A stretch of 58,887 bases of DNA, the filler included. It is 4 parts of 4 records of this genome, joined end to end, with 100 filler letters (N's around TTAATTAATTAA, not from the genome) between each part and the next. Parts side by side here need not be neighbours in the genome. Positions count along the whole stretch, not along the records: positions 21,610 to 28,310 come from SRR22947725_142; 3 more parts are not named here. The stretch is one strand, 5' to 3'. Numbering within the stretch: the stretch's first letter is position 1; every line of letters starts with the position of its first letter. The position numbers were made by a program, and so were the translations under genes. Positions 108 to 40,749 of the stretch are shown here, piece after piece. The notes below the pieces were generated by a model. It had not been told where the DNA came from. It saw only the letters and a program-made list of their open reading frames with translations, and ran no database searches.

Positions 108-971
108 AAATTTTGTTATGGCAGAAAAATCTAAGTCACCTTTTTTTTGGTTTACCATATTCCCAAAGCTTTCTTGAGCTTTCGTTCCAAAAGGTGCAGA
201 TGTGTTTGTGCTTTGTATAGCTTTAAGAGCTATACTTAAATCTTTAAACATTAAGCTTGCTGAAAAACCTGGTTCAAAGTTATTGTCTGCAGGACTTTGA
301 GGTCCTACCCCCTTAATAGGACAATAATTATTTATAGCCCAACAAGAGCTAGTGGAAGTTGATAATATTTCAAATAGTTTTTGAGGATCCAACCCTAAAT
401 TTTTACCTAAGTTGAAAGCTTCTCCTACACCAATCATAGTCGTTGCTAACAGCATATTATTACATGCTTTTGTGGCTTGTCCTGTTCCATAAGACCCACA
501 CAGAAGTGATTTTTTTCCCATTACTTCAAATAATGGTAACATTATTTTATAGGCGTTTTCTGTGCCACCTACCATAAAAGTTAGAGTGCCATTTTCAGCA
601 CCACCAACACCACCTGAAACTGGAGCATCAAGAGACAAAAGTTTTCTATCTTCACATTTTTTGTGTAAAATTTTTGCTTGATCAACATCAATAGTGGAGC
701 AGTCTGTTATCAATGTACCCGGCCTTAAGCTATCTATAATGCTGTCTAAGACTTGCTTTACAACGTCTCCATTAGGTAACATTGTGATTATTATATCTAT
801 ATCTTTTGGTATATCATTTAAATCAGAAGCTTTTTTAAGTCCTTTTGGTAAAAGTTGTTTTACAAATTCTTCATTAATATCATAGCCAATAACTTCGTAA
901 TTAGCATTCAAAAGGTTTGTTACCATTCGAGCACCCATGTTGCCTAAGCCAACAAAACCGACTTTTTTCAT
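99..971 (-). CDS. mmsB: 3-hydroxyisobutyrate dehydrogenase
   Basis: GFVGLGNMG Rossmann motif, LDAPVSGG, GTLTFMVGG, KACNN, and the YCPxxGVGPxSPADxxFEPGF tail typical of HIBADH. Confidence 0.9.
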   Translation of the reverse strand: MKKVGFVGLGNMGARMVTNLLNANYEVIGYDINEEFVKQLLPKGLKKASDLNDIPKDIDIIITMLPNGDVVKQVLDSIIDSLRPGTLITDCSTIDVDQAKILHKKCEDRKLLSLDAPVSGGVGGAENGTLTFMVGGTENAYKIMLPLFEVMGKKSLLCGSYGTGQATKACNNMLLATTMIGVGEAFNLGKNLGLDPQKLFEILSTSTSSCWAINNYCPIKGVGPQSPADNNFEPGFSASLMFKDLSIALKAIQSTNTSAPFGTKAQESFGNMVNQKKGDLDFSAITKFNE

Positions 972-7183: not shown

Positions 7184-8848
7184 TTATAAATTTAAATTAC
7201 GGTCACAGTATGGTATGAGTTCTTTTTTATGTGTTATAAAAATTACTGTTATAAGATTTTCCTTACAAAACTTAAAAAGGTTTTTTAATATTTTGTGTTC
7301 GGTTTTTGAATCTAGTGCATTAGTAGCTTCGTCTAATATTAAGATTCTTGGTCTTTGATATAAAGCACGAGCTATTCCAAGTCTTTGTCTTTGTCCTCCA
7401 GACATAGCAGAACCACCTTGTGTGATTATTTCGTGAAAACCATTTTTAAGAGTTTTAAACCAACTTTCTAAATCAACTAATTTTAAAACATCATTGACAT
7501 TTTTGATATTGCTATTTTCAGCTGTATCTAAAATGATATTTTCAAGTACTGTGCCATGAAAAATAAAAATTTCTTGAGGAACATAACTGGCTCCCTTTTT
7601 TTTGTAACAATCTTTACCAGGTACAACGGATCCTTTTGCTGGGTCTAAAAACCCTAAAATTAAATTAACTAAAGTTGATTTCCCAGTTCCAGATTTACCA
7701 GTAACAGCTACAAATTCACCTTCTTTAATTTCCATATTAAACTTGTGGAAAATATTAATTTTAGGGTTGTAGTTAAAACTAACGTTAGAAAACTTAATAT
7801 TTCCAGAAATATATTCTTTTTTGAATTTTTGGTCATTTTTGACATTTAAACTTTTATGAAACTTCATTTGATATAAAAAATCTGAAACAGAATCCTCATT
7901 AGACTTTATATACGTCCATCCAGAAAATGCAGCCTGAAAATACGGCATAAAACGCTGAAGTGCAAAAACTATGGCGGCAACAAAGGGAAAGTAATCAGAA
8001 AAATTTTGGTAACCGTCTACCATAAATATAAATATAAAAATTAATGTAATTAAAGCTGGCTCTATAATTAACCTAGGAGTAGCAGAAATTATACGTGAGA
8101 ATGCACTTGAAAATAATGTATTTTTTGCAAAATTTGAAAATTGATTATTTAAAAATGGTTCAGCTTTGTAAAGTTTCAACTCTCGATAACCTGCTTTTTT
8201 TATTAGTGCTAGTCGAGACATATTTTCATATCCCTGGTTAATTAAAGTACTGCAATTTTTTAAAATTTGTCTTAATTTATACATTATTAAAAAATACAAA
8301 ATTGCTATTAATGTTATAGCTAAAAGAACTAAAGGCCCCACAAACGTAATAAGAAAAATTAATAATAAGATTAAAAGGATAAACGAAGATACTATACTTA
8401 ATAATGGAATTATTAGCCCTTCAATCACTGCGGTTAATTTAACAGTAACAGTTGTAACAAAGTAATCTGTTGGTTTGTTATTAACACTTAAAAATTCTCT
8501 ATTACTTATTCCCTTGAAGATCTTAACACAAAGCTCGTATCCTATAATGAATGCAATTTTGTTTTGTAGCCAAAGGTAAAAAAATCTTAAGCTATATGAA
8601 ACGAATAAAATCGCTAAAAATATTATAGCTAATTCAATGAATGTTTTTTTCTGATCTAATTCTAGCCAAGGTAGAATATTAATAAAGCTGTTTGAACTTT
8701 TACCTAGAACAACATTAATTAGAGGAATGACCGCCCCTATACTTACTAATTCGGCAATAGACGCTAGCAGAGAAATAAAAAGAACCAAAATCATTAAGTA
8801 AGTTTGTTTTTTGCTTAAATATGCATATAATTTAAAAATATTATTCAG
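7184..8848 (-). CDS. ABC exporter (fused TMD-NBD), glycan/lipid-linked oligosaccharide flippase type
   Basis: Hydrophobic N-terminal half, GKSGTGKST, SGGQRQR and LDEATNALD. The frame is open upstream of ATG 8794 to a CTG at 8848. Confidence 0.85.
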   Translation of the reverse strand: MNNIFKLYAYLSKKQTYLMILVLFISLLASIAELVSIGAVIPLINVVLGKSSNSFINILPWLELDQKKTFIELAIIFLAILFVSYSLRFFYLWLQNKIAFIIGYELCVKIFKGISNREFLSVNNKPTDYFVTTVTVKLTAVIEGLIIPLLSIVSSFILLILLLIFLITFVGPLVLLAITLIAILYFLIMYKLRQILKNCSTLINQGYENMSRLALIKKAGYRELKLYKAEPFLNNQFSNFAKNTLFSSAFSRIISATPRLIIEPALITLIFIFIFMVDGYQNFSDYFPFVAAIVFALQRFMPYFQAAFSGWTYIKSNEDSVSDFLYQMKFHKSLNVKNDQKFKKEYISGNIKFSNVSFNYNPKINIFHKFNMEIKEGEFVAVTGKSGTGKSTLVNLILGFLDPAKGSVVPGKDCYKKKGASYVPQEIFIFHGTVLENIILDTAENSNIKNVNDVLKLVDLESWFKTLKNGFHEIITQGGSAMSGGQRQRLGIARALYQRPRILILDEATNALDSKTEHKILKNLFKFCKENLITVIFITHKKELIPYCDRNLNL

Positions 8849-21609: not shown

Positions 21610-21642
21610 ATTGAACTTATGACCTCTACGATGTCAACGAAG
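21610..21642 (-). repeat. Partial tRNA-Val(GAC) copy (anticodon arm to T loop), att-like direct repeat
   Basis: Minus strand reads CTTCG-TTGACAT-CGTAG-AGGTC-ATAAG-TTCAAT. No D arm or acceptor 5' strand upstream. 21610-21631 is identical to 28289-28310. Confidence 0.85.
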
Positions 21643-21735
21643 TTGTCGAAGAAAGACTTATATGATGATAACACTAGTAATTTTACTATCTCAAATACAA
21701 ACAGTAAATTCTAAAAAAAGTTTATTCAAATATTT

Positions 21736-22194
21736 TTAAATTTTCCATTTATACGGAAATTTTGGGTCATCAAATGGCACTCTTATAATTTCTTCCTTAT
21801 CATGAGGAATATCAGAACAATTAGCTAAAATTCCAGAGTTATTATCATTTGAGCAAAATCCATTCCATATTTTAGGCGGAATAGAAATTAAGCAGTGATT
21901 GTCTTCGGAAATTATTATTTCTTGGATAGCGCCTTTAGTTTTGCTTAAAGATCTATCATCATATAGCACAATCTTAATAGAGCCTTTAACAGCTACATAA
22001 TTCAGCGTCATTAATTTATGATAATGCCATGCTTTAATTTTTTTAGGATTAACAAAAGAAAAATACACTTCTCCAAATTTTGTAAAGCTACTATCATCAC
22101 ACCTTAACATATGTAAAATTTTTCCTCTATCATCAATAATTTGCTTCTTTTTAATTATTTGAACTCCTTGTATTTGACTTGTAATTTCTTCCAT
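21736..22194 (-). CDS. NDP-4-keto-6-deoxyhexose 3,5-epimerase (RmlC-like cupin)
   Basis: DDRG, FGEVYFS, KAWHYH, VLYDDR and IPPKIWNGF motifs. Confidence 0.85.
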   Translation of the reverse strand: MEEITSQIQGVQIIKKKQIIDDRGKILHMLRCDDSSFTKFGEVYFSFVNPKKIKAWHYHKLMTLNYVAVKGSIKIVLYDDRSLSKTKGAIQEIIISEDNHCLISIPPKIWNGFCSNDNNSGILANCSDIPHDKEEIIRVPFDDPKFPYKWKI

Positions 22195-22196
22195 AT

Positions 22197-23288
22197 TTAA
22201 ATTTTGGTTTTTTTCATGTAGTCGATTATTTGTTTTCTAGTAATAAATAATAAATCTTTTTTCTTTTTGAAATTAATGTACCAGTCAACAGTAAGTTCTA
22301 CTGATTCTTTTATACTTAAATTTGGCTTCCATTTAAGATATTTTTTTACTTTTTTACTATTAATATTCAAGAATTTTGACTCAAAAATTTTTTCTTTCTT
22401 AAATTTGTAGAAATTTTTTTTTATCTTAATTTTTGACTTAGATTTCATAGTTGTTTTTATCAAATTTGCAAATTTATAAACTTGCATATTTTGCTTTGAA
22501 CTTGGTCCAAAATTCCAAGGTCCTTGAAATTTTTTTCCATTTGTAGAATATAATTTCTGTATTAAAATAAGATAACCAAATAAAGGCTCAATGACATGTT
22601 GCCATGGTCTATTTGCTGTAGGACTTCTAAGAATTAAAGTTTTATTTGCATAAAAGTTTTCTAAAGCGTCTTTTGTAATTCTATCCTCCGTCCAGTCTCC
22701 TCCACCAAAACAATTTCCTGCTCTTACAGTTGCAATACTACAATTTGAATTTTGAAAGAAAGATTTATTAAAACTATTTATCAATATTTCGCAACATGCT
22801 TTGCTACCGCTATACATGTCATCACCTCCTAATTTAGAGTTTTCATCGAAATATTTAGATTTTTCATAATTTTGATAAACTTTATCAGTTGTAATTATTA
22901 ATAAACTTTTTACGCTTTTCTGATTTTTTACCGACTCTAACAGATTGTAAGTTCCAATTACATTTGTTGACACAGTATTTCTAGGATCTTTGAAACTCTC
23001 AATGACACTTGATTGAGCAGCTAAATGAATAATAATTTCTGGTTTGAACTCTCTAATTTTTTTTTTCAAATGATTGTAATCACGGATGTCATGTTTAATA
23101 TCTTTGTTAAAAATTTTTTTAATTTTAGTTTCCTTATAAAAACTATTTTTCCCTTTAGGACTCAAAGCATAGCCATAAATTTTACTTCCCAATAAGTCTA
23201 AAATAACTGTTAACCACCCGCCTTTAAATCCAGTATGGCCAGTAACCATAACCCTTTTATTTTTCCAAAATTTTCTATCTATCCTCAT
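22197..23288 (-). CDS. rfbG: CDP-glucose 4,6-dehydratase
   Basis: FWKNKRVMVTGHTGFKG, ITTDKVY, YSGSK, RAGNxxGGGDW and RPWQHVxEPL motifs. Confidence 0.93.
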   Translation of the reverse strand: MRIDRKFWKNKRVMVTGHTGFKGGWLTVILDLLGSKIYGYALSPKGKNSFYKETKIKKIFNKDIKHDIRDYNHLKKKIREFKPEIIIHLAAQSSVIESFKDPRNTVSTNVIGTYNLLESVKNQKSVKSLLIITTDKVYQNYEKSKYFDENSKLGGDDMYSGSKACCEILINSFNKSFFQNSNCSIATVRAGNCFGGGDWTEDRITKDALENFYANKTLILRSPTANRPWQHVIEPLFGYLILIQKLYSTNGKKFQGPWNFGPSSKQNMQVYKFANLIKTTMKSKSKIKIKKNFYKFKKEKIFESKFLNINSKKVKKYLKWKPNLSIKESVELTVDWYINFKKKKDLLFITRKQIIDYMKKTKI

Positions 23289-23327
23289 AAATTTAACATA
23301 TTGGCAATGCGCGCTTATAGATAATCT

Positions 23328-24299
23328 TTACTTATTTTTTTGAAGAACGCCTCTAATATAGCAGTTATCTCCTGTGTTATTTACAAACCACATCAATTTT
23401 TCTTCACTTCGAACTTTTTTAATTTGAAGAATATCTTGCCTTAAGCTTATTAGTTTATTAGGTATAAATTTTTTTATCAATTTTTTTAACTTTTGAAATG
23501 AAAAAAAAGAATTAAAGCCTCTTTCGTATAAAGATTGAGACTCTCTTTGATTTTGAAGGTCTCTCGAAAAAGAATATGCAGAAAAAGAAAAATTTATAAA
23601 TTTAAATCCATGAATTTCAGCAAGTTTTTCAATGCTTTTTTTGGTATAAAATAAAAGGTGCGGACCATCGTATGGCCTTCCATCCCAGTACTCTTTTGGA
23701 CAGTTAGGAACCTCAAAAAAAATATATCCGTTGGGGTTTAAAAAATCTTTAAATTTCTTAAAAATATTATTTATGTTTGATATGTGTTCTAATGAGTGTG
23801 TAGTAGTTATTAGATCAAATTTCTGGTTAATTTCATCTAAATTTTTAAAATTTTTATAGCCCCTGTCTGTTAAAATTTTTTCGCAATATGAATCCCCCTC
23901 CGTACAATAAAGATTAAGCTGAGGAAATTTTTTTTTTAAAGCAAAGCCTAGATCTCCGTCGCCACAACCAAAATCATATAAATTTTTAACTTTAGTAACA
24001 TCAACTAATGATGTGAGGTAGAGTAAATAGCTTAAATTTTTTTCTTCTAAATAGTGTTTTTTTTGATCTTCGTAATTTTCACTTACTAGATATGGAGGTC
24101 TTCCATCAGATCTATAGATATTTTCATAAAAATAATTTAAGTCTTTTTCATTTGGCATAGGATGAACAAAACCAAAATCACAATCATCACATCGATAAAT
24201 TTTTACATTTTTAAAATAATTTTTATCTTCTTTTATCTCAAATTTGTAATTATCAAGAAATTTTACACTCTCTTTTTTTTCACAGATTAAACAATGCAT
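23328..24299 (-). CDS. Class I SAM-dependent methyltransferase with N-terminal CxxC..CxxC
   Basis: CLIC/CDDC, YDFGCGDG, HSLEH and FFEVPN motifs. Confidence 0.85.
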   Translation of the reverse strand: MHCLICEKKESVKFLDNYKFEIKEDKNYFKNVKIYRCDDCDFGFVHPMPNEKDLNYFYENIYRSDGRPPYLVSENYEDQKKHYLEEKNLSYLLYLTSLVDVTKVKNLYDFGCGDGDLGFALKKKFPQLNLYCTEGDSYCEKILTDRGYKNFKNLDEINQKFDLITTTHSLEHISNINNIFKKFKDFLNPNGYIFFEVPNCPKEYWDGRPYDGPHLLFYTKKSIEKLAEIHGFKFINFSFSAYSFSRDLQNQRESQSLYERGFNSFFSFQKLKKLIKKFIPNKLISLRQDILQIKKVRSEEKLMWFVNNTGDNCYIRGVLQKNK

Positions 24300-24323
24300 A
24301 CACTTATCTTATTTATAATAATC

Positions 24324-25106
24324 TTAATTTTTTAAAAGATATTTTTTTAAATTTTTTGTTTTTAAATACTTTTGATTAGTTTTAGACTGTTTGTCAACCA
24401 TTTCAAGATCTTTAATATTGTCTACAGAATGCCAAAAACCATTAATTTTAATTAATTTGCAATTTTTTCTTTTGATCAATCTAGGAAAAAAAGTTTGTTC
24501 AAAGTTTTCAGAATTTATGAAAATTTTTTTTAATTTTTTAATCATTTTACTTTTTATAATAGACATCCCAGTATAATTATATGCTACATAGTTTTTTTGA
24601 GGCCTTATAGATAAAGCGTCATATATTAAATTTCTTCTAAAATCTTTTACTTGCCCTTTGATTACTCCAATCGTGCCATATGGATAAATTATTTCTCCTG
24701 ATAAAAAACTGATTGTCTTTTTTTTATCAATATGCTTTTTAAGAATTTTATTAATGTTGATTTTAAATATAGCATCACCATTTAAAAGTAGAAAATCTTC
24801 TGATCTTATTTTGTTCGAAATTTTTGCTATCCTATAGCCTATATTCGAATTAACTCCTGTAGAGACACAGTCAATCTTAATGTTAAAGTTTTTATTTTTT
24901 TTCAAAAACTTCCTTATCAATTTTTCTTTATATCCTAATGGCAAGATTATGTGATTAAAATTATTTCGCTTAAGTATTTTTAAAATATACCATAGTATTT
25001 CTTTACCTTGAATTTTAACCAAAGTTTTAGGTAATTTTTTTCCAATATTACCTAATCTTGTTCCCTTGCCTCCACATAAAACTACTGCTGTTTGTAATTT
25101 TTTCAT
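24324..25106 (-). CDS. Sugar-1-phosphate nucleotidyltransferase, glucose-1-phosphate cytidylyltransferase (RfbF)-like
   Basis: LCGGKGTRL, PK.LV.I.GK.ILW and GFWHSVDN motifs; in the same cassette as rfbG. Confidence 0.8.
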   Translation of the reverse strand: MKKLQTAVVLCGGKGTRLGNIGKKLPKTLVKIQGKEILWYILKILKRNNFNHIILPLGYKEKLIRKFLKKNKNFNIKIDCVSTGVNSNIGYRIAKISNKIRSEDFLLLNGDAIFKININKILKKHIDKKKTISFLSGEIIYPYGTIGVIKGQVKDFRRNLIYDALSIRPQKNYVAYNYTGMSIIKSKMIKKLKKIFINSENFEQTFFPRLIKRKNCKLIKINGFWHSVDNIKDLEMVDKQSKTNQKYLKTKNLKKYLLKN

Positions 25107-25124
25107 TTTAAAATATTGTATTAG

Positions 25125-25949
25125 TTACTTCCATAGAGAGTTGCTGGTTGTTATGTGATTAAATTTAATTTTTGATCTTTTATTAAATATTAATTTACCT
25201 TTTGCTTTATGTATTTTCCAATATTTTTCTACAAAATTTTTTATAAACTGGGGTTTATTTTCTGCTACGTGCCAAATTTGAAAAGTTTTAAACTTTTTTT
25301 TGTTGAAATTCATTGCATCATATATAGCTTGGCTTACAAAATTAATATTTGTAAAATCTCTTTTCTCTAGCGGATTTTTAACGAAAAAATTTTTTCCTCT
25401 TGTCGCAGTTTTAATCAAAGATGGATAAAGTCTTTTTTTGTTTTCTCCTTTTCCGTAAACAGGAAAAATCCTCAAAACTCTTACTTTGCAACCAAATTTT
25501 TTAGCTAATTTAATACATTGATCAGAAAACATAGCCTTGCTCATACCATAATCATCTGATGGAATTCTATTAGAATGTTTTGAAAATTTAACGTTTTTAT
25601 CATTTAATCTAATTCCGTATTCAGATGAAGTGCTAATGATTAACCAGTTTTTACATTTAAATCTAATGCAGTTTTTTATTAGCTCAAGAGACTTAAAAAC
25701 ATTTGTATTGTATTTATCTTCATTATATTCTTTATTAATTCCAGTAGAAGCCATATGTACTAAAATATCTGAGTCAGATAACTCCTTTTTCCAATTAAAA
25801 TTAATATTGCCCTTTAGCCACTTCATATTTTTAATTCTATTTTTTCTCTTTTTTCGGGATGTAGCATAAATAAAGTGACCTTTTTTTAATGCCAGTTTAT
25901 AGAAATTTTTCCCTATAAACCCAGAACCGCCTGTTAAGAAAATTTTCAT
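25125..25949 (-). CDS. NAD(P)-dependent epimerase/reductase (probable NDP-4-ketosugar reductase)
   Basis: LTGGSGFIG, SSEYG, YGMSK and RDF motifs. Confidence 0.8.
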   Translation of the reverse strand: MKIFLTGGSGFIGKNFYKLALKKGHFIYATSRKKRKNRIKNMKWLKGNINFNWKKELSDSDILVHMASTGINKEYNEDKYNTNVFKSLELIKNCIRFKCKNWLIISTSSEYGIRLNDKNVKFSKHSNRIPSDDYGMSKAMFSDQCIKLAKKFGCKVRVLRIFPVYGKGENKKRLYPSLIKTATRGKNFFVKNPLEKRDFTNINFVSQAIYDAMNFNKKKFKTFQIWHVAENKPQFIKNFVEKYWKIHKAKGKLIFNKRSKIKFNHITTSNSLWK

Positions 25950-26965
25950 AATTTTTTAGTTTGTAATAATCGTAAAATTTTTCTAAAAATAAAGTAAATT
26001 AGAGACAAATAAACATTGGGATAAAGTAAATTTTTAAAAATGTGTTTTGTAAAATTTAAATAGCTTCTACCCATCTTTTCTCCTCCAATTAGAATTTTAA
26101 AGATGTAATTGCTAAAGTTTCTTAGTGCAAAATTTTTACAGTATATATATTTTGTAAAATTTAAACCTTGAGATCTATAATAATCTAAAAGCTCTGGAAT
26201 GCGAACTATCTCAACAAACTCATACATTGATTTCCATTCTCGTTCTCCAATTAAATTTACACTTAATGGCTCTGCACAAATATATATTTTTGATTTTTTA
26301 AATGCATTTGAAATTATTATTGGATGTAAGCAAGTATTATCAAAATTTGACCAAACCTTTGTGTCTCTAATGTTTTCTTGATTGATAACATCTAAAGATT
26401 TTAACCATTTTTTAGTGTTAAATATATTGAGATAAATGCCTATCAAAAAATCCCATGAAACTTTAGGATCTATAACATCCCAAAAATTACCTGCTCTATC
26501 TTTATTAAGTTTTGAAATTGTCTTCATATTTTTTATATTTAAATTTTTTGTATCAAAAGGCGAACTAAATTTTTCTAAATAAACTGATTGCAAGTGATAT
26601 GAATTTATAAAAAAATAATCTTTATCTAAATTGTTTGATAAAATTCTTTTTACCTTCAATAATGTTTCTGGCAAAATTAAATCATCATCGCCTATCATCC
26701 AGGAATATTTTCCTTTTGCCATTGAAACAGCCTTAATTCCATTAATAGCAAAACCATAATTTTCTTTATTTTTATGAAATTTAATATTTAGGTCTTGACT
26801 ATATTTTCTGATGATTTTTTCAGTATCTTGACCTGAGTTGTTATCTGAAACACATATCTCAAAATGAAAATTATCAACATGATTTTTAGAAATCAAAATT
26901 GAGTTTAAACAGTTATCTAACGACTTAACTCTATTAAATGTTGGTATGCATATGGATAATATCAT
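25946..26965 (-). CDS. GT2 glycosyltransferase
   Basis: LSICIPTFNR, VSDNNS and IGDDD motifs; ATG 26965 is the likely start. Confidence 0.88.
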   Translation of the reverse strand: MILSICIPTFNRVKSLDNCLNSILISKNHVDNFHFEICVSDNNSGQDTEKIIRKYSQDLNIKFHKNKENYGFAINGIKAVSMAKGKYSWMIGDDDLILPETLLKVKRILSNNLDKDYFFINSYHLQSVYLEKFSSPFDTKNLNIKNMKTISKLNKDRAGNFWDVIDPKVSWDFLIGIYLNIFNTKKWLKSLDVINQENIRDTKVWSNFDNTCLHPIIISNAFKKSKIYICAEPLSVNLIGEREWKSMYEFVEIVRIPELLDYYRSQGLNFTKYIYCKNFALRNFSNYIFKILIGGEKMGRSYLNFTKHIFKNLLYPNVYLSLIYFIFRKILRLLQTKKL

Positions 26966-26984
26966 TAATAAAAAAAATTTAATC

Positions 26985-28247
26985 TTAATAATCGTGTGAT
27001 AAATTTCCAAAGTCTTTCTTTAAATATAAATGAAAATTGTCAATACTCACGATGTGAAATCTTGGTAAATGAAAAACTAACTTACCGCCTTTTTTTAAAA
27101 ATTTTAGTTCCTGCTTAATTACTTCTTTTCTAAAAGACCATATAAGTACTAGTAAGTAGTCTGGATTTTTTTTTCTCATTTTTTGTTTAGATATAATTCT
27201 TATATTTGATCCAGGTGTATACCTTGAGTATTTTTTTTTACTACCATCGCAAATTTCTTTTATTTCAGTGTTTTTAATTTCACAATGATTCAAAATTATA
27301 TTGCCTTTAGTGGAAGCTCCATAGCCTATTATTCTTTTATTTGAATTTAATTCTATAAACATTCTAATTAAGTTCTTTATTTTGTTTATTCTGCTATTAA
27401 AGTTTTTGTATGATCTTTCTGTTATTTTCTTTTCATCGTTCAAATATCGATTAATCATTTTTTTATTTACCTTAAATTTACTTTGTTTTTTGCTACAAAT
27501 TATTTCAATACTCCCCCCATTAATTTCATTTAATGAAACATCGACTATTTTAAGATTATTTTTTTCTATTATATTTTTAAATACCGTGAGAGTGTAATAT
27601 GTAACATGTTCATGACAAACTTGATCATAAGTTAAATTTTTAAGCATTAAAGGAAAATAAGAAAGTTCTAAAATCCAAACTCCATCTTTTTTTAGTAATT
27701 TATAAATATCTTTGCAAAATGAATTGGGATCATCTACATCATAAAACATTGCAAAAGAAGAAATCAAGTCAAATTGCGTTTCTTCTTTTGTGAAGTAAAG
27801 TATATTTTTTCTAGAAAAAAAATTATCAATGACTTTAATTTTTTTATTATATAATTTTTTGAATTTTTTTGCTGATGGGTCTACTCCAAATAATTCATGC
27901 GATTTATCAAAGTTATTTAAAAAAGTACCATCATTACTCCCTATATCCAAAATACAAGAATTTTTTTTTAAATAATTCTTTTTTTTTAAATATTTTATTT
28001 TTTTCTTGATATGATTTACCATTAAATTACTTAAAGAAGTGCGATATTCATAAGTATCCCCAAACATTTTTTTTGATTCTGGAGTTTTAGAAAGTTGAAC
28101 TAATTTGCAAATTTGGCATTGATAAAGATCAAGAGAATATTTTTTTAGGTTATACCTTTTGCTTTGATAAAAAACACCACTTAAAGGTTGTGATCCTATT
28201 TTTACTATTTTTTTTAATTTTTTTTTTTTACAATTTCTACACTTCAT
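26985..28247 (-). CDS. NDP-hexose C-methyltransferase (TylC3/NovU/TcaB9-like)
   Basis: N-terminal Zn site (CRNC, CQICKLVQL), LDIGSNDG, YDxVCHEH..YY, NGGS and GYGASTKGN motifs. Confidence 0.88.
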   Translation of the reverse strand: MKCRNCKKKKLKKIVKIGSQPLSGVFYQSKRYNLKKYSLDLYQCQICKLVQLSKTPESKKMFGDTYEYRTSLSNLMVNHIKKKIKYLKKKNYLKKNSCILDIGSNDGTFLNNFDKSHELFGVDPSAKKFKKLYNKKIKVIDNFFSRKNILYFTKEETQFDLISSFAMFYDVDDPNSFCKDIYKLLKKDGVWILELSYFPLMLKNLTYDQVCHEHVTYYTLTVFKNIIEKNNLKIVDVSLNEINGGSIEIICSKKQSKFKVNKKMINRYLNDEKKITERSYKNFNSRINKIKNLIRMFIELNSNKRIIGYGASTKGNIILNHCEIKNTEIKEICDGSKKKYSRYTPGSNIRIISKQKMRKKNPDYLLVLIWSFRKEVIKQELKFLKKGGKLVFHLPRFHIVSIDNFHLYLKKDFGNLSHDY

Positions 28248-28271
28248 ATTTAAATCAATTTTTATAAGACA

Positions 28272-28310
28272 TGGTGGGCGTGATAAGAATTGAACTTATG
28301 ACCTCTACGA
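28272..28310 (-). tRNA. 3' part of tRNA-Val(GAC) (gene or repeat copy), cut by the contig end
   Basis: Minus strand TCGTAG-AGGTC-ATAAG-TTCAATT-CTTAT-CACGCCC-A-CCA gives a perfect T stem, TTCRA loop, discriminator A and encoded CCA. The GAC anticodon is inferred from the overlapping copy at 21633-21635. Confidence 0.8.
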
Positions 28311-37992: not shown

Positions 37993-39049
37993 AATTTATG
38001 TAATTGCAGAAATAGGAGTAAATCATAACGGTAATTTGAAACTAGCAAAGAAGTTAATAATTGCTGCGAAAAATACTGGAGCTGATGCAGTAAAGTTTCA
38101 AAATTTTTCTGCAAATAATTTAGCTACCAAAAAATCACAAAAAGCTGATTATCAAAAAAAAAATACTAAAAATAATGAAACACAATATGAAATGTTAAAA
38201 AAATTAGAATTAAAAAAAGATAATTATTTTGAACTAAAAAAATTCTGTAAAAAAATAAAGATTGAATTTATTTCATCTGTTTTTGATGAAGAAAGTATTG
38301 ATTTTCTTTCTAAGAAGCTGAAAACAAAGTACATCAAAGTACCTTCTGGAGAATTGACTAATTATCCATTGTTAAAAAACTTACAAAGAATTAAAGACAA
38401 GATTATTTTATCAACTGGAATGTCTAATTTAAAAGAAATAGTTAATAGTTTAAATATAATTGCAAACAAAAAAATCTTTAAATTTGTTAATAAGGAAAAA
38501 GTTATAATTCACAATAAAAAGTTACATAAAAAATTTAAGAAAAGAATTATAGTATTACATTGTGTAACTGATTATCCTGTAGAAAATAAGTACGCAAATT
38601 TATCAGCTATTGAAAATTTAAAATTAAATTTAAAATTAGATGTTGGATATTCAGACCATACTTTGGGTATATTAGCACCATTAATAGCGGTCTCAAAAGG
38701 TGCAAAAATTATTGAAAAACATTTTACATTGAACAATAATATGTCTGGACCTGATCACAAAGCTTCATTAGAACCTAATGAATTTAAAAAAATGGTGGAA
38801 TATCTAAGAATTTTTGAAGCAATGAATGGAGATGGAAAAAAAAATTTACAAAAATGTGAATTAAAAAACATTCACATTGCAAGAAAAAGTATAGTAGCAA
38901 AGAAGTTTATTAAAAAGAATAATGTGTTTTCATATATGAATTTAACAACAAAAAGACCTGGAAATGGAATAAGTCCTATGAAAATAGTTAACTTAATAAA
39001 TAAAAAAGCAAAAAAAAACTTTCAACCTGACGAACTGATAAAAATATAA
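37976..39049 (+). CDS. neuB: Nonulosonic acid synthase (NeuB/LegI) with SAF domain
   Basis: IAEIGVNHNG, KVPSGE, LHCVTDYP, GYSDHT, GPDHKASLEP, ARKS and KRPGNGISP motifs. Confidence 0.92.
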   Translation: MTLKDKIYVIAEIGVNHNGNLKLAKKLIIAAKNTGADAVKFQNFSANNLATKKSQKADYQKKNTKNNETQYEMLKKLELKKDNYFELKKFCKKIKIEFISSVFDEESIDFLSKKLKTKYIKVPSGELTNYPLLKNLQRIKDKIILSTGMSNLKEIVNSLNIIANKKIFKFVNKEKVIIHNKKLHKKFKKRIIVLHCVTDYPVENKYANLSAIENLKLNLKLDVGYSDHTLGILAPLIAVSKGAKIIEKHFTLNNNMSGPDHKASLEPNEFKKMVEYLRIFEAMNGDGKKNLQKCELKNIHIARKSIVAKKFIKKNNVFSYMNLTTKRPGNGISPMKIVNLINKKAKKNFQPDELIKI

Positions 39050-40749
39050 TGAAAATTTTATCACTTTATCCTTGGACACACATATCTTCATCTGCATTGA
39101 TGATAAATGGAAAAATTGTAAGTGCTGCACCAGAGGAAAGATTTACAAGAAAAAAATGGACAACAGACTTTCCAATAAATTCTGCTAATTGGTGTTTAGA
39201 AAATTCTAAACTTTCATGGAATGATCTAGATTTAATTGTGATTCCATGGAATCCAGGTTTAAATATAAGCTCCGCATCATCGAGATGGGATAGTAATATC
39301 AGTTGGAGGGGGGAAATGCTAAGTAAAATTCCTTCAAATATTTTGAAAGCAACAAAAAACTATAATCCAGGTGTAATGAGTTTATCTTTTGATAAGACAA
39401 AAATAGTTTACTTAAATCATCATGACTGTCATGCGGCTTCAGCAGTTTTTGTTTCACCCTTTAATAAATGTGATTATCTGACAATAGATGGTCATGGTGA
39501 GGTAGAAACTTGTTTAATGGGTAATTTTGACGGAAAAAAACTTAATAATTTTCACTCAATAGCTTATCCCCATTCTGTCGGGTTACTCTATGGAGCTTTT
39601 ACAGATTTTTTAGGGTTTAAGCCAGATAATGATGAATGGAAAACAATGGCTCTTGCCTCGTTTTCTAAAAAAGAAAACCCATATGATAAAAAATTTTTAG
39701 AAGTTTACAAGCTCAAGCAAAACGGTTTTGAATTAAACCTGTCTTACTTTGATTTTTACATATTTGATAGAAAACCAAATTTTTATAATAAAAAGTTAAA
39801 AGAGTTATTTGGAAAACCAAGAAATAAAAATGAAAAAATAACAAAAAGACACCATGAAATTGCTGGAGCTCTTCAGAGAACATTTGAAAAAATTGTCTTT
39901 CATTTATTAAGAATTACAAAAAAATTAGGAGGTAAATCAAATAACATTGTATTAGCTGGTGGTGCTGCAATGAATTGTGTTTTCAATGGTAGAATTGAAA
40001 AAGGCAATATCTATAAAAATGATTTTGTTCCTCCATGGCCAGATGATTTAGGTGTTTCAATTGGTGCAACACTTTTAGCAAATAAAAACATAAAAAAAAT
40101 AAAGAAAAATTTTTTATTTAACAAATCTGTTTATTTAGGTCCAAAATATTCAGATAGAGAAATTGAAATTTTACTGAAAAAGTATGGTTTGAAATTTAAA
40201 AAAATGAACAAATTATACTCTTATATTGCTGATAAAATTTCAAAAGGTTACTTAATTGGATGGTTTCAAGATAGGATGGAGTTTACTCACAGAGCTCTTG
40301 GGAATAGATCCATACTTGCTGACCCAAGAAATAAAAATATTCAAAATATCATTAACAAAGCAGTAAAATACAGAGAGGGCTTCAGACCATTCGCCCCCGC
40401 AGTATTAGGAGAAAAGGCACACGAGATTTTTGACATAAAAAAAGGTAAAAAAATTGAATTTATGGAAAAAGCTGTATTGGTTAAAAATAATTGGAAAAAA
40501 AAAATACCAGCAGTAACTCATATTGATGGTACTGCAAGAGTTCAAACCGTTTATAAAAATTATAACTCTAAATTTTATAATCTGATTAAAGAATTTTATA
40601 AGCTAACTAATGTTCCAGTATTAGTTAATACATCTTTTAATTTAAATGGAGAGCCTATAGTTGAAAGCCCATCAGATGCAATACGTACTTTTCACACCTG
40701 TGGTCTAGATATTTTAGTTTTAGGAAACTATATAATAGAAAAGAAATGA
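39049..40749 (+). CDS. Carbamoyltransferase (NodU/CmcH family)
   Basis: EERFTRKK, HHDCHAAS, IDGHGE, AGGAAMNC, RALGNRSILADP, RPFAP and NTSFN motifs. Confidence 0.92.
   Translation: MKILSLYPWTHISSSALMINGKIVSAAPEERFTRKKWTTDFPINSANWCLENSKLSWNDLDLIVIPWNPGLNISSASSRWDSNISWRGEMLSKIPSNILKATKNYNPGVMSLSFDKTKIVYLNHHDCHAASAVFVSPFNKCDYLTIDGHGEVETCLMGNFDGKKLNNFHSIAYPHSVGLLYGAFTDFLGFKPDNDEWKTMALASFSKKENPYDKKFLEVYKLKQNGFELNLSYFDFYIFDRKPNFYNKKLKELFGKPRNKNEKITKRHHEIAGALQRTFEKIVFHLLRITKKLGGKSNNIVLAGGAAMNCVFNGRIEKGNIYKNDFVPPWPDDLGVSIGATLLANKNIKKIKKNFLFNKSVYLGPKYSDREIEILLKKYGLKFKKMNKLYSYIADKISKGYLIGWFQDRMEFTHRALGNRSILADPRNKNIQNIINKAVKYREGFRPFAPAVLGEKAHEIFDIKKGKKIEFMEKAVLVKNNWKKKIPAVTHIDGTARVQTVYKNYNSKFYNLIKEFYKLTNVPVLVNTSFNLNGEPIVESPSDAIRTFHTCGLDILVLGNYIIEKK

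Follow-up and report, generated by a model that had tools for sequence, protein, structure and literature searches.

How whole surface-glycan modules enter the chromosomes of SAR11 bacteria is a question raised by a short contig that begins and ends with the same piece of a tRNA gene. SAR11 is the most abundant marine bacterium, and hypervariable region 2 (HVR2), which holds the O-chain cluster, is its main surface-glycan locus. HVR2 probably sets the phage receptors that the cell displays, and the mode of entry of its modules is disputed: tRNA anchors, homologous replacement, and recombination at the rRNA flanks have all been considered. The DNA analyzed in this work (the window, 58,887 nt in full) consists of four contigs joined with N spacers, and the feature under study is the whole second contig (positions 21610-28310; 6701 nt, GC content 25.2%). 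A previous sequence-only reading proposed that this contig was either an excised circle of about 6.68 kb carrying one attP site or one unit of a tandem, integron-like array of glycan cassettes at tRNA-Val(GAC). Here, we report that it is a single-copy linear piece of a SAR11 (Pelagibacteraceae) chromosome, in which an insert lies between an intact tRNA-Val(GAC) gene and a 47-nt repeat, and that a tyrosine recombinase specific for tRNA-Val and acting in trans probably made the joint.

The identical 22-mer pointed out in the sequence-only reading is found exactly at both plus-strand termini of the contig and nowhere else in the window. Two matches of this 22-mer were obtained in none of 100 shuffles, and no terminal repeats were found between the other contig ends of the window. 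Searches of the window with ARAGORN and Rfam called no tRNA and no other RNA gene, and the nature of the two ends was resolved by comparison with related genomes. The right end (28272-28310) equals the terminal 39 nt, CCA included, of tRNA-Val(GAC) and is exact in 37 of 37 Pelagibacteraceae loci. All 37 loci of the genome collection that contain the exact 39-mer belong to this SAR11 family, and each has an identical 75-nt tRNA-Val(GAC); the right end is therefore the true 3′ end of a tRNA-Val(GAC) gene. At the left end (21610-21639), 30 nt agree with tRNA-Val(GAC) and the sequence departs from it beyond that point, so that this end is a fragment.

A metagenome contig search with the cupin protein encoded in the contig returned 80 loci, one of which (L078, 8555 nt) covers the whole contig and spans both of its ends (6656 aligned positions, 35 mismatches and 1 gap; 99.5% identity). 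The linear layout and its repeat are read directly in this sequence (Table 1). A contig from another sample (L077) has the same distal junction, with the 47-nt fragment at 2137-2183, and continues into 5S rRNA, and in a third (L131, 88-90% nucleotide identity) the intact tRNA directly precedes the module. As in a tRNA island, one end has an intact target tRNA (in L078), and the opposite end has a direct repeat derived from the 3′ part of this tRNA (in L078 and L077, with the first 30 nt of the repeat at window positions 21610-21639). An integrase inside the island is absent: all seven genes encode sugar enzymes, and the open reading frames (ORFs) of the scar in L078 and L077 are core-gene debris. 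A contig with the empty site was sought among the fetched loci, and none was found. The earlier statement that the 3′ half of tRNA-Val(GAC) bounds the module on both sides thus holds in that both repeats are derived from this tRNA, but the right end belongs to an intact gene, as L078 demonstrates. The fragmented assembly and its uneven depths could raise the suspicion that misassembly or amplification chimerism created the left end and that no second copy of the tRNA exists. Two metagenome contigs of other samples, however, have an identical copy (100% over 52 nt) of the scar junction of the window, which contradicts such an artefact, and we regard it as scarcely credible.

The identity of the contig ends is explained by the assembly graph, which was reconstructed from the Logan k=31 contigs of public runs. 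One of these runs, X19, contains a contig of exactly 6701 nt that equals the contig under study (depth 389), a separate 38-nt contig (depth 1000), positions 9-38 of which equal window positions 21610-21639, and an 807-nt contig (depth 149), which includes the 5′ part of the tRNA and exits the same 30-mer in another direction. Because each end of the contig overlaps the shared 38-nt node by k-1 = 30 nt, the termini are identical over 30+30-38 = 22 nt. The true repeat measures 38 nt when only exact matches are counted and 47 nt when one mismatch is allowed; the 22 nt shared by the termini are a leftover of the k=31 graph. Both termini are predicted to the base by L078: the first mismatch to the real tRNA is reached exactly 30 nt past position 21610, and position 28310 lies exactly 30 nt after the sole base that distinguishes the two repeat copies in L078. 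The terminal identity is a by-product of k=31 de Bruijn assembly, which breaks at the two copies of the repeat. Logan contigs of two other metagenomes (X1 and X2) end before or at the repeat, as predicted for k=31, at which contigs do not resolve a 38-nt repeat. Raw reads of X20 at position 21639 contain only generic SAR11 tRNA-Val (16 and 9 reads entering the real 5′ half), and since the depth of the module in this run is almost nil, they are uninformative on the junctions. In X19, a 45.7-kb contig (depth 396) ends 8 nt past a 34-nt match with 3 mismatches, and this end may be the other tRNA-Val gene. A practical warning follows from the graph: identical ends of a k=31 contig may merely mark a pair of short direct repeats.

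The same graph bears on the excised circle and on the tandem array of glycan cassettes with tRNA halves. In the k=31 graph the module does form a cycle via the 38-nt node, its depth in X19 exceeds that of the 807-nt flank, with the node deeper still, and a decayed full-length tRNA-Val-like gene is found in a glycan cluster of another lineage (L106 and L107); each of these would fit a circle or an array. Any pair of direct repeats, however, gives such a cycle at k=31. Moreover, the two repeat copies differ at one base, hence the 38-nt node with two entries, whereas a lone circle would yield one entry and no separate node. L078 bridges both ends into distinct chromosomal flanks, and L077 confirms the distal junction; these contigs, from other samples and with differing flanks, have the linear form. 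Copy number among relatives also argues against an array. The 22-mer (with up to 2 mismatches) is present in 117 of 401 genomes of the family, as a single copy in 116, and its exact form occurs at 71 loci of the whole genome collection, one copy each (68 full-length tRNAs, one cut by the edge of the locus, and two fragments). A second hit in the remaining genome, G232, was rejected as a mere 21-nt similarity with no tRNA at that place. The count of tRNA halves that was called for in the sequence-only reading thus returned one copy per genome and no array, and both the circle and the array now appear very improbable.

The locus itself was defined by comparison with relatives. In 5 of 5 relatives examined, the 5S rRNA lies 3′ of tRNA-Val on the same strand, and the 16S rRNA lies 27-60 kb upstream. 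Among 37 species representatives with the identical tRNA, the 5S rRNA lies 51-93 nt past the tRNA in 27 and 473-2386 nt past it in 7, and in the remaining 3 no 5S rRNA was found within the available 2.1-5.1 kb. In HIMB058 (L031), the order continues with pntA, pntB, transaldolase, a convergent typA (TIGR01394, 818 bits), and tRNA-Met. In the available portions of Wilhelm 2007 (PMC2217521) and Grote 2012 (PMC3448164), HVR2 is placed between 23S rRNA and 5S rRNA. Taken together with the order of tRNA-Val(GAC) and 5S rRNA in relatives, this position makes tRNA-Val/5S the distal boundary of HVR2, and the usual order is HVR2 genes, tRNA-Val(GAC), and 5S rRNA. Membership of the present locus in the HVR2 or O-chain cluster is supported by the 5S rRNA past the distal flank of L077, by the 16S spacing in relatives, and by the gene families.

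The origin of the inserted DNA can be read from the scar that separates the module from the tRNA fragment. In L078, the scar contains a 55-aa remnant from a second ligase-like allele, covering its final 49 codons; this remnant is 87.8% identical to the C-terminus of the full gene at another locus (L079) and only 60% identical to the resident gene (L077). In L079, the cupin gene is followed directly by that ligase-like gene and then by 5S rRNA. Next in the scar of L078 is a piece of typA with 47 internal codons, matching TIGR01394 at positions 257-299 (E 2e-7) and showing 90% identity across 39 aa with the typA of five relatives; it has an internal deletion. The ligase-like and typA debris keeps the order and orientation of the normal locus, so that the inserted DNA was a stretch of another SAR11 chromosome, taken from this very locus and extending from the tRNA to inside typA. 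In the window, the scar lacks a further 188 nt (window 21655-21665 versus L078 7125-7318), which two metagenome contigs retain. This gap falls between two 6-nt direct repeats, which indicates that the pseudogene debris is still undergoing deletion.

The two tRNA-Val fragments among the 71 loci with the exact 22-mer are located in contigs of binned Pelagibacter metagenome-assembled genomes (MAGs), G163:C61 and G402:C24. In both, a tRNA-Val fragment beginning with position 30/31 of the tRNA has a P4-type tyrosine integrase some 220 nt away from its 5′ edge. The integrases (464 and 466 aa; PF00589, 39 and 36 bits) possess arm-binding and SAM-like domains and share 53% identity. Each fragment is followed on its CCA side by low-GC genes of glycan type: a carbamoyltransferase and an SxtJ-like protein in G163, and an epimerase-like protein, two radical SAM proteins, DUF6044, a family 2 glycosyltransferase (GT2), and YdjC in G402. 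The two fragments have a G-to-A change in the acceptor strand in common, and in all three fragments (L078, G163 and G402) the identity with the tRNA begins at the first base of the anticodon loop, within 2 nt. Neither G163:C61 nor G402:C24 showed overlapping termini, so that circularity is not indicated, and a search of the arms of the two fragments against all loci for a matching attL past an intact tRNA found none. In L190, a 66% identical relative of the G163 carbamoyltransferase lies 5′ of tRNA-Val. A further 5 genomes (7 of 401 in total) encode more distant relatives of the two integrases, next to intact genes for tRNA-Lys, tRNA-Thr (three times), and tRNA-Arg. The search for a tyrosine recombinase that was suggested in the sequence-only reading succeeded in part: integrases do adjoin the same tRNA-Val fragment in two Pelagibacter contigs, but no viral contig carries the att sequence.

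Because the boundary of the L078 fragment coincides with that of the two integrase-linked fragments, we infer a recombinase origin of the joint. We propose that a tyrosine recombinase, not encoded on the inserted DNA, would have recombined the anticodon-loop region of tRNA-Val with a circularized piece of another SAR11 chromosome, this piece having been drawn from the same locus and having spanned, at first, the stretch between the tRNA and the interior of typA. Through the insertion, a complete tRNA would have been restored on one side, while the 3′ part that it displaced stayed on the other. Most of the duplicated core genes would then have been lost in later deletions, with the ligase-like and typA debris persisting and the window copy losing a further 188 nt.

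The same layout could also have been produced with no integrase at all, by an illegitimate, homology-facilitated, or unequal-crossover joint between two SAR11 alleles followed by deletions. Such a joint would account well for a scar made of core-gene debris in normal order and orientation, for the lack of an integrase, and for the 19 other inserts in the tRNA-Val-to-5S spacer that have no tRNA fragment, and deletions at 6-nt repeats do happen at this locus. It would also agree with the literature, since the available text of Wilhelm 2007 (PMC2217521) and of an October 2026 preprint (10.64898/2026.10.07.757358) favours homologous replacement and describes integrases as rare in SAR11, the latter reporting almost no integrases and no tRNA association. 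Against it stands the position of the break in the tRNA, which lies within 2 nt of the boundary in the two integrase-linked fragments, while a random break in a 75-nt gene would fall there about 1 time in 15 by our own rough estimate; in addition, no convincing microhomology was found at the joint with the available typA sequences. We therefore hold an integrase-free joint to be somewhat unlikely, and a tRNA-Val-specific recombinase acting in trans remains the probable agent.

Several observations nevertheless weigh against that recombinase. As stated in the sequence-only reading, the contig has no integrase; a tblastn search with two integrase queries found none in or adjoining the module or anywhere else in the window, and none was found in L077 or L078. 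Searches of viral contigs for the 39-mer, the 22-mer, and the G163 integrase gave 0 matches each. The G163 and G402 contigs, coming from binned MAGs, may be either integrated or free. The depths in X19 given above for the module, the 38-nt node, and the 807-nt flank are unbalanced for a simple single-copy layout. A pseudo-att site in the typA joint was sought by eye with the available typA sequences and gave no convincing match. The DNA that abuts the fragment is a piece of typA rather than the arm of an element, and an illegitimate joint would give the same. Finally, the 19 other enlarged tRNA-Val-to-5S spacers of relatives contain no tRNA fragment above shuffled controls, so that most inserts at this site bear no att scar.

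In its broadest form, the proposal would be that SAR11 has a site-specific system at the 5S end of HVR2, in which integrases beside an attP of tRNA-Val(GAC) positions 31-75 carry glycan blocks into tRNA-Val or mobilize them in trans; G163:C61 and G402:C24 would be such elements and the window module a fossil of one of this kind. We put this forward as a tentative idea that is unlikely to be correct. If it were true, whole phage-receptor modules, and even chromosome pieces of other cells, would move among cells of a lineage otherwise thought to lack mobile elements. The locus provides an att-like scar at tRNA-Val by the 5S rRNA, with debris that shows the inserted DNA to be same-locus DNA of another strain, and this scar together with two integrases by the same tRNA-Val fragment near glycan-type genes makes site-specific entry into HVR2 testable.

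The module between the tRNA and the scar comprises seven genes, which profile matches assign to sugar enzymes, all on the minus strand (Table 1), in agreement with the seven co-oriented glycan genes described in the sequence-only reading. Given what these enzyme families are known to do, the module is predicted to yield and transfer a CDP-activated, C- and O/N-methylated 6-deoxyhexose, which may resemble sugars of the vinelose type. The closest relatives of its C-methyltransferase in genomes are only 56-65% identical. Synteny of a six-gene core of the module extends to at least 8 other loci (53-80% amino acid identity), where the core is usually 5′ of tRNA-Val, and the 3′ side of tRNA-Val is an unusual place for it. 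The copy in L131 lacks exactly the gene for the 323-aa methyltransferase (L131 4517-4526 versus window 23304-24300), a gene-sized indel.

Table 1. Features of the contig at window positions 21610-28310 and gene order of the bridging metagenome contig L078.
Sequence	Feature	Position	Strand	Evidence or remark
Window	tRNA-Val(GAC) fragment, tRNA positions 29-58	21610..21639	-	Contig stops within the repeat; extends to position 75 in L078 (47 nt, 46/47)
Window	typA/bipA remnant, ~7 codons	21640..21659	+	47 codons left in L078
Window	O-antigen-ligase-like (Wzy_C) C-terminus, second allele, ~27 codons and stop	21656..21739	+	Translation
Window	RmlC/FdtA-like cupin (sugar epimerase or isomerase), 152 aa	21736..22194	-	PF00908, 48 bits; PF05523, 33.7 bits
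Window	CDP-glucose 4,6-dehydratase, 363 aa	22197..23288	-	TIGR02622, 398 bits (cut-off 278)
Window	S-adenosylmethionine-dependent methyltransferase, 323 aa	23328..24299	-	PF13489, 61 bits; gene absent from L131
Window	Sugar-1-phosphate nucleotidyltransferase, 260 aa	24324..25106	-	PF00483, 64 bits; glucose-1-phosphate cytidylyltransferase-like, TIGR02623, 89.5 bits, below cut-off 300
Window	NAD-dependent epimerase/reductase (short-chain dehydrogenase/reductase, SDR), 274 aa	25125..25949	-	PF01370, 90.8 bits
Window	Family 2 glycosyltransferase, 354 aa	25946..27010	-	PF00535, 70 bits
Window	Sugar C-methyltransferase, 420 aa	26985..28247	-	PF08484, 135 bits; PF08421, 48 bits; start 24 nt past tRNA 3′ end
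Window	Intact tRNA-Val(GAC), last 39 nt (positions 37-75, with CCA)	28272..28310	-	5′ part beyond the contig; whole gene is L078 439-513
L078, 1	C-terminal part of unannotated ORF			No Pfam or NCBIfam match; glycosyltransferase-like by eye only
L078, 2	Intact tRNA-Val(GAC)	439-513		Called by ARAGORN and Rfam; directly joined to the module
L078, 3	Seven module genes			
L078, 4	Scar			
L078, 5	47-nt copy of tRNA positions 29-75	7335-7381		46/47, one C-to-T in acceptor strand
L078, 6	Wzy_C / O-antigen-ligase-like gene, 445 aa			Convergent

The 6.7-kb sequence was found in 19 public runs, and X19, which holds all sampled words, is its probable source run. The other 18 runs are marine metagenomes from 11 studies dated 2014-2025, in which 68-87% of the sampled 31-mers are kept; this near-unchanged state across 18 metagenome runs is noteworthy in DNA that belongs to a hypervariable region. 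The contigs at positions 1-21509 and 28411-52972 also encode glycan-type genes, and many of their ORFs match HVR2 genes of relatives, so that the bulk of the window is HVR2. One window ORF (39049-40749) is 36% identical to the G163 carbamoyltransferase.

Other lineages show further rearrangements around this tRNA. In seven loci (L176, L182, L184, L185, and L090-L092), tRNA-Val is opposite in strand to the 5S rRNA or to the cupin module and about 1.5-1.7 kb away from it; the occurrence of this orientation in several lineages suggests local inversions at the boundary. One locus with the exact 22-mer (L187) is labelled 'Candidatus Marisalimonas marina' rather than Pelagibacteraceae and has the same order of tRNA-Val and then 5S rRNA. 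The decayed tRNA-Val-like gene of L106 (2272-2344) and L107 (3893-3965) lies about 70 nt past a cupin gene and is followed by a glycan gene that is HisF-like by eye. Its score with the Rfam tRNA model is 45.5 bits, versus 75 for the real gene, its acceptor stem has several transitions, and it is a second relic of tRNA-Val within a glycan cluster, in another lineage.

The locus can be compared with several known systems. One of them is the group of genomic islands that P4-type tyrosine integrases insert into tRNA genes; a class with crossover at the anticodon loop was reportedly described by Williams in 2002. In common with P4-type tRNA islands, the locus has an intact tRNA on one side, a direct repeat from the anticodon loop to CCA on the other, and cargo between them, and related integrases adjoin tRNAs in the SAR11 family; it differs from these islands in having no integrase, excisionase, or other element gene and in the core-gene debris that adjoins its repeat. 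Integron arrays resemble the proposed mechanism in concept, in that promoterless cargo units join a single site through a tyrosine recombinase whose gene lies elsewhere, whereas here there is no intI, no attC-type site was seen (no dedicated attC model was run), only one unit is present, and relatives have a single copy of the repeat. The available text of Wilhelm 2007 (PMC2217521) likewise reports no attC at SAR11 hypervariable regions.

The tyrosine integrases of SAR11 phages also use tRNA genes. According to the accessible portions of the respective papers, pelagiphage integrases recombine at tRNA genes with core sequences of 11-46 bp (Zhao et al., 10.1101/410191), and a prophage was described in tRNA-Val of SAG-MED28 (Lopez-Perez 2020, PMC7542561). 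The integrase that we found in SAG-MED28, which may or may not belong to the published prophage, is beside tRNA-Val(TAC), not GAC. The present locus differs from these integrations in that it has no phage genes and that no viral contig holds its att sequence. Phage insertion at tRNA anchors (Phe/His and Arg) is proposed from indirect evidence in 'Pelagibacter, resolved' (10.64898/2026.04.03.716430), the available part of which does not mention tRNA-Val.

With SAR11 HVR2 as hitherto described, the module shares the locus and the types of genes, its six-gene core being syntenic at other loci. In the available portions of three sources (PMC2217521; PMC3448164; 10.1101/2024.03.20.585866), exchange of the O-chain cluster is thought to occur by homologous recombination at the HVR2 flanks, and the last of these places tRNA-Val at an island boundary in one subgroup. 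The difference is that the module here is 3′ of tRNA-Val and bounded by a tRNA-derived repeat, an arrangement not described in the accessible parts of the HVR2 papers; a literature search, supplements excluded, found no tRNA-Val-derived direct repeat reported at the 5S end of HVR2 in the text available.

Further counterparts are the tycheposons of Prochlorococcus, which, as far as the available text extends (10.1101/2020.12.28.424599), are found in another streamlined marine bacterium as tRNA-adjacent islands, with partial tRNAs flanking the cargo and remnants that have no integrase. The host is different, SAR11 is never named in that text, and here the cargo consists of surface-glycan genes between the tRNA and the 5S rRNA. 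No tycheposon hallmark genes were seen in the module, no dedicated test having been made, and it is devoid of a recombinase or replication gene, while a partial tRNA is present at the locus.

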